Shown piece after piece: positions 54,905 to 56,865 of a stretch of 64,000 nt of DNA; the stretch's first letter is position 1; every line of letters starts with the position of its first letter. Below the pieces are notes generated by a model. It was not told the origin of the DNA. It worked only from the letters and a program-made list of their open reading frames with translations, and ran no database searches. Origin of the DNA: an uncultured Alphaproteobacteria bacterium (GTDB taxonomy: Bacteria > Pseudomonadota > Alphaproteobacteria > RF32 > CAG-239); assembly GCA_944393205.1 (NCBI GenBank), contig CALXZI010000002.1:500-64499 (forward strand), written 5' to 3'. The position numbers and the translations under genes were made by a program.

Positions 54905-55640
54905 CAGATTTGTACGCACCCGTCTTCTTTTAGGCGATGACGGAATGGAAAATTTGAGCAAAGCAACGGTAATGATTGCCGGCCTCGGCGCCGTCGGTGG
55001 TTATGCTTTGGAAGCCGTTGCCCGAGCTGGGGTGGGGCGCTTGTTGCTGGTAGATTGTGACAGCTTTGACGTCACCAACATCAACCGCCAGATTTTAGCC
55101 TTAAATTCCACCATCGGCCTGAAAAAAACGGATGTTGCCGCCGCACGTGTGCGTGAAATCAACCCGTCGTGTCAGGTTGTCATAAAAGATATGTTCATCA
55201 ATAAGGAAAGCTTGAACGAACTTTTAGCCGAAACGCCGGATTATGTGATTGATGCCATTGATACGTTAGGTCCGAAATGTGATTTGATGGAGGCCTTGCA
55301 AAACCGCAATATACCATTTATATCTTCCATGGGCGCGGCCTTAAAGACCGATGTTTCTGCCGTAAGATTAGCCAAACTTTCGCAAACGCGAAACTGCTCT
55401 TTGGCAAAACACGTCCGTCAAAACTTGAAAAAACGCGGTGTAAAGATTGAAGATATTGATTGTATTTTTTCCGCCGAACAATGTAAAATAAAACATCAGG
55501 CGGTTATTGCCGGTCAAGACGGAAAGAAAAGCACACTCGGCTCGCTGCCGACCATTACCGCCATTTTCGGGTTGATGATGGCCAACGAAGTCATATTAAA
55601 ACTGGCAAAAGGAAAACAAAATGCAACAGACAAATGCTGA
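54894..55640 (+). CDS. tcdA: tRNA threonylcarbamoyladenosine dehydratase (ThiF/MoeB-like E1 fold)
   Basis: Rossmann IAGLGAVGGYALEAVARAGVGRLLLVDCD and NINRQ motif typical of TcdA/CsdL. Confidence 0.75.
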   Translation: MTDDRFVRTRLLLGDDGMENLSKATVMIAGLGAVGGYALEAVARAGVGRLLLVDCDSFDVTNINRQILALNSTIGLKKTDVAAARVREINPSCQVVIKDMFINKESLNELLAETPDYVIDAIDTLGPKCDLMEALQNRNIPFISSMGAALKTDVSAVRLAKLSQTRNCSLAKHVRQNLKKRGVKIEDIDCIFSAEQCKIKHQAVIAGQDGKKSTLGSLPTITAIFGLMMANEVILKLAKGKQNATDKC

Positions 55641-56865
55641 ACCAAAAATCAAAATCGTGCTGCTGGGGCGCAAAAATTCCGGCAAAAGCAGTTTTTTGAA
55701 CTTGCTGTTGAATCATGACGCGTCAGCGACGGCAACGCCGTCTTTGGATGTTGTCGGGGTTGAGGAAGTCAGACAGGAAATGCACCCGTTCGGTTCGGTA
55801 TTATGGTTTGATGTTCCGGGGTTTTCAAATGATGACACGTCCAATCAGTTAAAAACAATCGCGCCGGTCTTACACAAGGCCGATGTGGCGGTGTTGGTTT
55901 GTGAAGGCGATGAAATCGGCACGATAGAGCGCGATATCATCACGCATCTGGAATTAAAACGAATACCGCGGATTGTGGTGTTCAATAAAGCCGACACGCA
56001 CGCCATCGGCGATCCGGAAGGAGCGATTGTCGCCAATTCTCTGGATAAGTCGTCAAGAACTCAAGTTTTGACCGAACTCAAAGCGGCGCTTATCCGTGTT
56101 TGTCCGGAAGATTTGCTCGTTCCGCCGGTATTCATCGGCGATTTGGCACCACGTGGCGGCACGGTTATTATGATGGTTCCCAATGATTATGATTACGTCA
56201 AAGGTCGTCTTCCTTTGCCGCAGGCGCAGGTGATTCGCGACTGCTTGGACCACAATCAAATGATTATGACCGTCAAAGAAAGCGAATATGCCAAAGTGTT
56301 GCAAAATCTTAAAACCCCGCCGGATTTGGTGATTTGCGATTCTTCACTGGTTTCGCAAATGGTGGTGCAAACCCCGAACGGCATCAAATGCACGAGTTTT
56401 TCGGTTTTAACCGCCCGCATGCTGGGCGATTTGCAGCAAATGACCGACGGCGCCTTGGCCGTGTGGCGCTTAAAAGACGGCGACAAAGTTTTGATTGCCG
56501 AGCCGATTTTGCCCGAAAACCTGCAAGATGACATCAGTACGGTCAAAATTCCGCGCTGGCTGTCGGAAAAAACCGGAAAAGACTTACTGATTGAACATAT
56601 GTACGGTTCCAGTTGTCCGCTCGGATTGGAAAATTACAATCTGGTTATCCACCGTGGGCTTCATCAGCAAAGCCGTAAAGACTTTTTAGAAGAACAAAGC
56701 CGCTGTCTGGCCGCCGGCGTCCCGCTGACCAATTACAGCGTCTGCGCCTCGGAATTACATGGTTTGCTGGCCAAAATTTTGGAACCTTTTCCTAACACGT
56801 TGGAACGCTACCAAAGACGCCGCGAAGAGATTATTCAGACTGTGCCGAACAAAAACAGAATATAA
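55621..56865 (+). CDS. HydF-like GTPase lacking Fe-S cluster ligands
   Basis: G1 GRKNSGKSS, G3 DVPG, G4 NKAD. C-terminal VKIPRWL and PLTNYSV...LHGLL blocks resemble remembered T. maritima HydF. The positions of the HydF CxH and HCxxC ligands read PIL and HRGLH here. Confidence 0.55.
   Translation: MQQTNAEPKIKIVLLGRKNSGKSSFLNLLLNHDASATATPSLDVVGVEEVRQEMHPFGSVLWFDVPGFSNDDTSNQLKTIAPVLHKADVAVLVCEGDEIGTIERDIITHLELKRIPRIVVFNKADTHAIGDPEGAIVANSLDKSSRTQVLTELKAALIRVCPEDLLVPPVFIGDLAPRGGTVIMMVPNDYDYVKGRLPLPQAQVIRDCLDHNQMIMTVKESEYAKVLQNLKTPPDLVICDSSLVSQMVVQTPNGIKCTSFSVLTARMLGDLQQMTDGALAVWRLKDGDKVLIAEPILPENLQDDISTVKIPRWLSEKTGKDLLIEHMYGSSCPLGLENYNLVIHRGLHQQSRKDFLEEQSRCLAAGVPLTNYSVCASELHGLLAKILEPFPNTLERYQRRREEIIQTVPNKNRI

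Follow-up and report, generated by a model that had tools for sequence, protein, structure and literature searches.

A Tandem HydF Paralog without Iron-Sulfur Cluster Ligands in Uncultured Gut Alphaproteobacteria

Identification of hydF′

The DNA analyzed here (the window) is a 64,000-nucleotide stretch from the genome of an uncultured alphaproteobacterium. The gene of interest, hydF′, is a lineage-specific tandem paralog of hydF, which encodes a maturase of [FeFe] hydrogenases. Sequence comparison indicates that the four cluster cysteines conserved in HydF have all been lost from its product, as has the switch-I threonine. Its P-loop, NKxD motif, fold, and dimerization domain remain. Completion of the [2Fe] subcluster of [FeFe] hydrogenases takes place on HydF as a scaffold. 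The switch-I threonine of TRAFAC GTPases coordinates Mg2+ and the gamma-phosphate. Below, HydF′ denotes the ligand-less paralog, L numbers denote homologous loci, and P numbers denote homologous protein clusters or sequences. The position and basis of the gene are as follows.

55621–56865, forward strand: hydF′, with a cluster-less product of 414 aa, paralogous to the [FeFe]-hydrogenase maturase HydF (basis: open reading frame (ORF), hidden Markov models, PDB matches, AlphaFold2 (AF2) model, and ratio of non-synonymous to synonymous substitution rates (dN/dS))

The ORF starts with ATG and has 414 codons with zero internal stops. Its product matched TIGR03918, the NCBIfam model of HydF, over profile positions 2–391 of 392 (E = 3.9e-88). 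The score of 295.9 bits did not reach the equivalog cutoff of 325.55 bits. Other HydF′ members scored 253–279 bits, and the adjacent canonical HydFs scored 494–499 bits. Three Pfam domains were found: MMR_HSR1 (PF01926), HydF_dimer (PF18128), and HydF_tetramer (PF18133). In the PDB, the HydF structures 5KH0, 3QQ5, and 5LAD matched residues 11–392 at E of about 5e-52, and the next matches were G domains of Der/EngA at E of 1e-8 or worse. An AF2 model built from 52 homologs had a mean predicted local distance difference test score (pLDDT) of 83.6. When it was searched with Foldseek, the sole full-length PDB matches were again 5KH0, 3QQ5, and 5LAD (E = 2e-28 to 3e-19). Pfam, the PDB alignment, and the AF2 model all gave the three-domain architecture of HydF, with a G domain, one for dimerization, and a C-terminal cluster/tetramerization domain.

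The homology of this ORF to HydF is specific and full-length, and extends beyond the G domain. An earlier note, made from the letters of the DNA alone, had called the product a HydF-like GTPase. The TIGR03918 search and the alignment to 5KH0/3QQ5/5LAD bear this out, and the similarity is not limited to a generic GTPase domain, as is evident from the HydF-only Pfam domains and the full-length alignment. The motifs that it quoted are all present: GRKNSGKSS at residues 16–24, DVPG at 64–67, NKAD at 122–125, VKIPRWL at 308–314, and PLTNYSV...LHGLL at 368–383. The public annotation of HydF′ members is inconsistent: 'HydF' is used for one member at IMG and plain 'GTPase' for another at NCBI (MDY4884769.1).

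Lost and Retained Motifs

The motifs and domains of HydF′ map to the window as follows.

55666–55689, forward strand: G1/P-loop, G16–S23 (GRKNSGKS), retained
55747–55749, forward strand: switch-I position, Leu43 in place of the canonical Thr of GTTTD (clade comparison)
55810–55821, forward strand: G3 motif, D64–G67 (DVPG), present in the window protein
55984–55995, forward strand: G4 motif, N122–D125 (NKAD), retained and invariant in 52 of 52 aligned sequences
56134–56427, forward strand: HydF dimerization domain, residues 172–269 (Pfam PF18128, E = 1.3e-28, the strongest Pfam match)
56437–56787, forward strand: former [4Fe-4S]-binding domain, residues 273–389, remodeled (Pfam PF18133, E = 1e-21)
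56506–56514, forward strand: I296-L297-P298 at the canonical C-x-H ligand site (alignment to 5KH0/3QQ5/5LAD)
56650–56664, forward strand: H344-R345-G346-L347-H348 at the canonical [HQ]-C-G-G-C ligand site (structure and paralog alignments)

The [4Fe-4S]-ligating motif of HydF is C-x-H-x(46-53)-[H]C-x2-C (PMC9431212). Among the 120 protein clusters closest to the window protein, 21 were ligand-less, with AEP[IF]xPxEL or [VI][ED]SFxxxxL at the first site and [IV]HRGL[HY] at the second. About 100 others, at about 55% identity to the query, carried the canonical AESCTHH and IQCGGC. The cluster motif was thus lacking in 21/21 HydF′ clusters and present in the roughly 100 canonical neighbors. In the HMMER alignment, canonical E-G-C-T-H corresponded to E-P-I-L-P of HydF′, and I-H-C-G-G-C to I-H-R-G-L-H. 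The canonical paralogs likewise carry C-T-H where HydF′ has I296-L297-P298, and HRGL[H/Y] was found in all HydF′ members. Four cysteines conserved in the canonical paralogs are replaced (C296I/F, C330S, C345R, and C348H/Y). The histidine of CxH has become Pro, or Glu/Gln in one subclade. No HydF′-specific invariant cysteine was found across the clade. The total loss of Fe-S ligands proposed in the earlier note is therefore upheld by the alignment to HydF structures and by the clade comparison. Of the two replacements that it named, HRGLH was correct, and 'PIL' was one residue out of register, the correct residues being I296-L297-P298.

The canonical HydFs of L001–L008 and L015 have an extra conserved cysteine, C330, in the cluster domain (34/35 sequences), and this residue is Ser in every HydF′. 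On the alignment, canonical C330 could be the fourth [4Fe-4S] ligand, replacing the Glu/Asp of Thermotogae and Clostridium.

The GTPase motif set of HydF′ is incomplete: the window protein retains G1, G3, and G4, but leucine takes the place of the G2 threonine throughout the clade. G16, R17, G21, and K22 were invariant in the 52 aligned sequences (17 HydF′ and 35 canonical). The P-loop Asn was invariant in canonical copies and variable in HydF′. T43>L was a fixed difference between HydF′ and canonical HydF, and GTTTD was lacking in 21/21 HydF′ clusters. The G3 Asp was lost in the subclade of P0018, P0020, P0021, and P0055, where the motif reads MKIPG or RELPG.

Most of the fixed differences from canonical HydF are located in the former cluster domain: C330S, Q344H, C345R, G347L, N351S, R358E, and G373S. 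HydF′ retains the conserved VKIPRW and TNY blocks. The mean identity between HydF′ and canonical HydF was 55% in the dimerization domain, 49% in the C-terminal domain, and 47% in the G domain. Within HydF′, the former cluster domain was the best conserved, with 73% identity. This pattern of substitution indicates a cluster site that was remodeled and then held constant, rather than one that is decaying.

In a scan of 1.84 billion cluster representatives, the full-length HydFs among the best 150 all kept CxH...CxxC, except P0055, which belongs to this clade. No other full-length cluster-less HydF was found among these 150; the remaining sequences with fewer than three cysteines were truncated fragments, apart from P0167, which diverges only around the second motif. 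A full-text literature search for a cluster-less HydF paralog, a HydF-like protein, or HydF2 found no description of a cluster-less paralog; the name 'HydF2' does occur in one paper.

Selection on hydF′

The dN/dS values were calculated by the NG86 method for nine informative genome pairs. They were 0.07–0.21 for HydF′, 0.05–0.25 for tatD, 0.07–0.21 for thiF, 0.05–0.12 for canonical hydF, and about 0.04 for hydG. The value of HydF′ was similar to those of its upstream neighbors tatD and thiF and roughly twice that of canonical hydF. The hydF′ ORF was intact in 21/21 clusters and on dozens of independent contigs. These substitution patterns indicate that hydF′ is maintained by purifying selection as a functional gene.

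Purifying selection bears directly on the idea that hydF′ is a decaying pseudogene or an artefact of annotation or assembly. The TIGR03918 score under the cutoff and the lost catalytic motifs would fit such an idea. The intact ORFs, the low dN/dS, the confident structure prediction, and the conservation of the replacement motifs all speak against it, and it is scarcely credible.

Tandem Paralogy and Origin

Tblastn and gene-context analysis showed that, in most related loci, a canonical hydF comes next after hydF′ on the same strand, with a gap of 19–102 nt. The arrangement was found in the following loci.

L001–L006, L011–L017, L024, L025, L028, L029, L031, L032: loci with the hydF′-hydF tandem

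In many of these loci, hydG directly follows hydF (486 bits on TIGR03955, cutoff 312). The hydF-hydG pair adjoins hydF′ in the conspecific strains L001 and L024 and in most relatives. In neither L001 nor L011 was a plus-strand terminator predicted in the gap that separates hydF′ from hydF. HydF′ orthologs diverge down to 55% identity, with the tandem arrangement still conserved.

Three loci lack HydF′ and have canonical hydF right after tatD-thiF: L008, L026 (P0103), and L027 (P0115). In L008 and L027, hydG then follows hydF. Because lineages without HydF′ have hydF straight after tatD-thiF, the ancestral cluster is reconstructed as tatD-thiF-hydF-hydG, and the gene order indicates that HydF′ arose by duplication between thiF and hydF.

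A neighbor-joining tree (401 columns, 200 bootstraps) placed all HydF′ sequences in one clade (bootstrap 100, stem length 0.31). This clade lies within the canonical HydFs that the same bacteria carry. The internal topology of HydF′ mirrored that of the canonical copies. In the canonical gut-alphaproteobacterial clade, the exact branching next to HydF′ had a bootstrap of just 4–64. The HydF of L008 grouped with that of L003 (bootstrap 97.5), and HydF′ was therefore lost secondarily in L008. Ligand-less HydF forms one narrow clade whose neighbors are tatD-thiF and usually hydF(-hydG).

Some loci depart from the simple tandem. P0019 (402 aa, on a 1766-nt ENA contig) is an apparent chimera, with the P-loop and switch I of a P0010-type HydF′ and a canonical C-terminal domain with CTH and CGGC; its origin is either a misassembly spanning the two tandem paralogs or genuine recombination. 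L028 (ERZ16268216 scaffold_42376) has an L003-type HydF′ (100% over 235 aa) followed by a canonical HydF closest to that of L015 (88%) and not to that of L003. This mix could stem from recombination between lineages or from an exchange of alleles, or the assembly could be chimeric. In L004–L006 and L011–L014, hydG is not beside hydF; the gene after hydF encodes a 392-aa protein that matches nothing in Pfam or NCBIfam, and a desulfoferrodoxin gene comes next (e.g., L011 12706–14431). In L011, a strong terminator lies at 13903–13930, after the 392-aa gene.

Host Lineage and Hydrogenase Context

A scan of genome collections placed the locus in metagenome-assembled genomes (MAGs) of uncultured gut Alphaproteobacteria. 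CALXZJ01 'BRZ_EQ bin53' was 100% identical over the best segment. Further MAG matches at 54–98% included the human-gut MGYG-HGUT-00610 and a MAG labeled 'uncultured Azospirillaceae'. The human-gut 'Azospirillum sp. CAG:239/260' and 'Acetobacter sp. CAG:977' have been reported to carry [FeFe] hydrogenases and all three maturases, with HydF and HydG of CAG:260 under adjacent accessions (Degli Esposti et al., PMC4967309). The earlier note had assumed that this type of organism lacks an [FeFe] hydrogenase. This is contradicted by that report and by conspecific and related genomes, in which hydF (494–499 bits) and hydG (486 bits) lie directly 3′ of hydF′.

Upstream Neighbors

The genes upstream of hydF′ are as follows.

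54146–54904, forward strand: gene of a tatD-family hydrolase, the first of the tatD-thiF-hydF(′) cluster (Pfam, synteny)
54894–55640, forward strand: thiF-family (TcdA-like) gene (Pfam ThiF, 2.2e-41; synteny)

The tatD product matched Pfam TatD_DNase (PF01026) at 3e-46 with 158 bits, well above the gathering score, and scored 139.9 bits on TIGR00010 (cutoff 206). To judge from the sequence, its translation probably begins 10 codons inside the ORF, with the ATG of MYFCDTHIH. The best NCBIfam match of the thiF product, by a wide margin, was TcdA (NF011696) with 148 bits, below the equivalog cutoff of 304, and these profile scores make 'ThiF-family, TcdA-like protein' the most fitting description. 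The overlap between thiF and hydF′ is 20 nt. The tatD-thiF synteny was kept in all related loci, and hydF′ overlaps or almost abuts thiF in every locus.

From these two neighbors, the earlier note had suggested a role related to tRNA or RNA. Where HydF′ is absent, canonical hydF fills the same slot after tatD-thiF (L008, L026, and L027); in L027, the upstream synteny is different. Because canonical hydF occupies the same slot without HydF′, the linkage to tatD-thiF is inherited synteny and gives no independent support to an RNA role. The link between HydF and tRNA based on gene order is thereby removed.

A glycosyltransferase family 2 (GT2) gene at 52987–54123 (segment 52778–54107) lies between elbB and tatD. 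It is an insertion relative to the approximately 98%-identical L001, which has 12 nt there. At this spot, L002 has a 74%-identical allele, and L015 has GT2, NUDIX, and PLD genes. The GT2 position is a second hypervariable spot in the neighborhood of hydF′.

Strain-Variable Segment Replacing hydF-hydG

The features downstream of hydF′ in the window are as follows.

56856–58618, no strand: strain-variable segment of 1.76 kb, in place of hydF-hydG of L001 (L001 6600–9362; blastn, junction alignments)
57033–58151, forward strand: gene of an ankyrin-repeat protein, 372 aa (Pfam Ank_4, 2.8e-8; Ank_5)
58289–58585, reverse strand: ORF of 98 aa inside the variable segment (ORF list; gene-called in L021–L023 too)
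58619–58665, reverse strand: partial, att-like copy of the 3′ end of tRNA-Ser with terminator hairpin, exactly on the right-hand border of the variable segment
58856–58944, reverse strand: tRNA-Ser(GCU) gene (ARAGORN; Rfam tRNA, 62.2 bits)

Blastn against L001 and L002 and junction alignments showed that the window is collinear with the conspecific L001 (about 98% nt identity) up to about 56855 and again from 58619. The left breakpoint lies in the final codons of hydF′, where the C-terminus reads ...VPNKNRI in the window and ...VPNKKF in L001. The two HydF′ proteins have three amino acid differences. The 64-kb window was searched for hydA, hydE, hydG, and a second hydF by running Pfam on 26 ORFs, inspecting the other ORFs, and using canonical HydF and HydG as tblastn queries; none of these genes was found. 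In the window strain, hydF′ is an orphan at this locus. Within one species of gut alphaproteobacterium, hydF-hydG is thus present in some strains and absent from this locus in others.

No remnants of hydF or hydG were found in the segments that stand in their place in the window and in L007/L018 (tblastn at E <= 10, sensitive blastn), and only the tRNA-Ser flank was shared. A 47-nt direct repeat was found at 58619–58665 and 58828–58874 (98% identical), and the latter copy is the tRNA-Ser 3′ end with its terminator. Homology to L001 resumes exactly at 58619, the edge of the distal repeat copy, and the duplicated terminator hairpin is present in L001 too. The tRNA-Ser repeat has the form of an att-like signature of past site-specific integration. 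As to other RNA genes at the junction, a miRNA-family Rfam match of 28.8 bits was dismissed (gathering score 90), which left only tRNA-Ser.

The exact HydF′ protein of the window was found on at least eight contigs, and the three loci shown (L021–L023, from independent samples) all have the order hydF′-ank-orf98. Because independent samples share this order, the window arrangement is a genuine haplotype in circulation rather than a chimera. The window-type C-terminus is in the minority in the species-level protein cluster (3/15 listed sequences, 13/56 contigs).

The ankyrin gene has an internal 89-nt repeat pair, 483 nt apart and 71% identical, and is preceded by a promoter-like site at 56978–57006 that matches at 11/12 positions. 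The ankyrin protein has a hydrophobic N-terminal segment ending in ...MASSCSN, which gives it a lipoprotein-like look. The 98-aa ORF at 58289–58585 had no NCBIfam match. Elsewhere in the window, the ORFs without a Pfam match at E <= 1e-4 were 36297–38975 (reverse strand, 892 aa), 39697–40311 (forward strand, 204 aa), 47217–47819 (forward strand, 200 aa), and 48393–49004 (reverse strand, 203 aa). The window also has a 1044-aa ORF at 15605–18739.

Second Orphan Lineage

The P0017 lineage (L007 and L018–L020; 24 member sequences, contigs up to 170 kb) has tatD-thiF-hydF′ without downstream hydF-hydG. Between the hydF′ genes of L007 and L018 there were 17 synonymous and eight non-synonymous codon differences. 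With 78% of sites being non-synonymous, this departs from neutrality (binomial P = 1.2e-6). Changes at positions invariant in all other HydF′ lineages amounted to 4.2% in P0017, compared with 2.1–6.4% in other lineages, and the P0017 branch was not longer than its sister branch. P0095 and P0101 were considered as the relocated hydF of P0017 and rejected, both being directly downstream of another HydF′.

Proposed Function

With all Fe-S ligands lost, any function of HydF′ would be cluster-independent. A HydF variant with two ligand cysteines changed to alanine (C353A/C356A) supported no maturation at all, and the [4Fe-4S] cluster was strictly required (PMC12752695). Because a cluster-less HydF is inactive, we infer that HydF′ cannot be a HydF, with binding of the [2Fe] precursor and activation of apo-HydA excluded. 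HydF is always a dimer or larger, through a very hydrophobic interface of the dimerization domain, and the dimer is thought to be important for the HydE and HydG steps (PMC7450098). The roles of the obligate dimer and of the GTPase of HydF are still debated (PMC7450098, PMC12752695).

The best-supported model, which is put forward tentatively, is that HydF′ is a pseudo-enzyme subunit that hetero-oligomerizes with HydF. It would probably still bind guanine nucleotide, with G1, G4, and G5 intact, and would not hydrolyze it on its own. It would be unable to hold a [4Fe-4S] or [2Fe] cofactor. It would assemble with the putatively co-transcribed canonical HydF through the dimerization and tetramerization surfaces, and its part in that complex during H-cluster assembly would be structural or regulatory, not catalytic. 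In the window strain, HydF′ would be a recently stranded partner or would be kept for a secondary role. This model is favored because the hydF′-hydF tandem is conserved over deep divergence, the dimerization domain is retained, and hydF′ is under purifying selection.

Several points weigh against a partnership with HydF. Two independent lineages, the window haplotype and P0017, have hydF′ without adjacent hydF-hydG. The codon differences in P0017 indicate that this orphan HydF′ is still constrained, and continued selection on it argues for a function without a neighboring hydF. No relocated canonical hydF of the P0017 lineage was seen among the listed homologs. The former cluster domain, being the most conserved part of HydF′ and carrying the fixed HRGL[H/Y], has more the look of a new site than of a passive scaffold. 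In addition, L008 lost HydF′ and yet kept hydF-hydG, so HydF′ would be dispensable for maturation.

These points lead to the main alternative, a neo-functionalized HydF′ that would have taken on a cluster-free and HydF-free job after the duplication, for example, as a nucleotide-bound scaffold or sensor with a remodeled HRGL[H/Y] pocket. Such a hydrogenase-independent HydF′ is possible, if doubtful. Orphan hydF′ in two lineages, constraint that is not relaxed in P0017, and fixed substitutions in the most conserved domain are on its side. A pocket made of H344-R345-G-L-H/Y348, S330, S351, and E358 with such a function would explain selection in the lineages without hydF-hydG; this, too, is conceivable without being the likelier case. 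In one version of this alternative, HydF′ would be tied to the putatively co-transcribed TatD- and ThiF-like proteins, as the earlier note had it, and the overlap or near abutment of hydF′ with thiF in every locus would fit. However, the tatD-thiF neighborhood is inherited from canonical hydF and carries no independent functional signal, and hydF′ still lies immediately upstream of hydF in most lineages. The loss of hydF-hydG in the window is very recent (about 98% nt identity to L001), so an intact hydF′ there proves nothing, and the orphan genomes could hold hydF, hydG, or hydA elsewhere. Of the earlier proposal of a HydF fold repurposed for a cluster-independent role, the cluster independence holds, and the separation from hydrogenase maturation is a possibility that we would not expect to prevail.

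The window hydF′ could also be a functionless leftover that worked only with HydF, was stranded by the recent deletion of hydF-hydG, and has not yet decayed. The small distance to L001 (about 2% nt, three amino acids in HydF′), the breakpoint in the last codons of hydF′, and the minority standing of the window type (3/15 listed sequences, 13/56 contigs) are in keeping with this. It is unlikely, given that the haplotype circulates in several independent samples, that recombination kept the reading frame, and that the older orphan lineage P0017 is still constrained.

It is very improbable that HydF′ is still an Fe-S protein, a variant HydF scaffold with alternative ligands. The C-terminal domain of the window protein does have C332, C362, C375, H344, and H348. 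However, C362 and C375 are common to the canonical paralogs, which have ligand cysteines of their own; C332 is lacking in 5/17 HydF′ sequences, and H348 is Tyr in some. The change of two ligand cysteines to alanine already inactivates HydF (PMC12752695). Alternative cysteine ligation was rejected on the ground that the HydF′ clade has no invariant cysteines of its own.

Significance and Comparison with Known Systems

HydF′ is taxonomically narrow, and its mechanism is a proposal. A selected protein that is co-encoded with HydF and HydG and lacks the cluster and the GTPase switch would be a natural dissection of the cluster, dimer, and GTPase roles of HydF. If HydF′ hetero-oligomerizes with HydF, a HydF dimer would make do with a cluster and an active G domain in just one of its subunits. 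If HydF′ acts on its own, a second, new function would be added to the HydF fold, and if that function is independent of hydrogenase, HydF′ would be the first HydF fold recruited to another process. In practice, inconsistent annotation as 'HydF' or 'GTPase' can overcall the H2-metabolism potential of gut MAGs.

Compared with canonical HydF, HydF′ has the same three-domain architecture, collinear full-length homology, P-loop, NKxD, and VKIPRW and TNY blocks, and in relatives it is encoded in a predicted operon with hydF-hydG. It differs in lacking the cluster cysteines, the CxH histidine, and the switch-I GTTTD; its P-loop Asn is variable, and the G3 Asp is lost in one subclade.

P0130, P0152, P0197, P0217, P0241, and P0242 are also full-length HydF homologs with a degenerate G2 Thr motif in switch I. 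Unlike HydF′, they keep CxH...CxxC, come from unrelated lineages, and have 27–34% identity to the query. Judged by their motifs, they probably still bind a cluster. Some of them also have degenerate G3/G4, a partial degeneration opposite to that of HydF′.

PseudoGTPases and other dead-enzyme paralogs can partner active relatives. HydF′ resembles pseudoGTPase paralogs in that it keeps the fold and G1/G4, lacks catalytic and switch residues, lies beside an active paralog, and is under purifying selection. It differs in that it persists in strains after deletion of the active paralog from the locus, and its partnering is only proposed here.

Cfd1 and Nbp35 are paralogous P-loop NTPase scaffolds for Fe-S clusters, of which one has fewer ligands and works in a hetero-oligomer. 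They are Mrp/MinD-type ATPases of an unrelated family. A bridging cluster is still shared by Cfd1; in HydF′, by contrast, no candidate ligand is conserved clade-wide.

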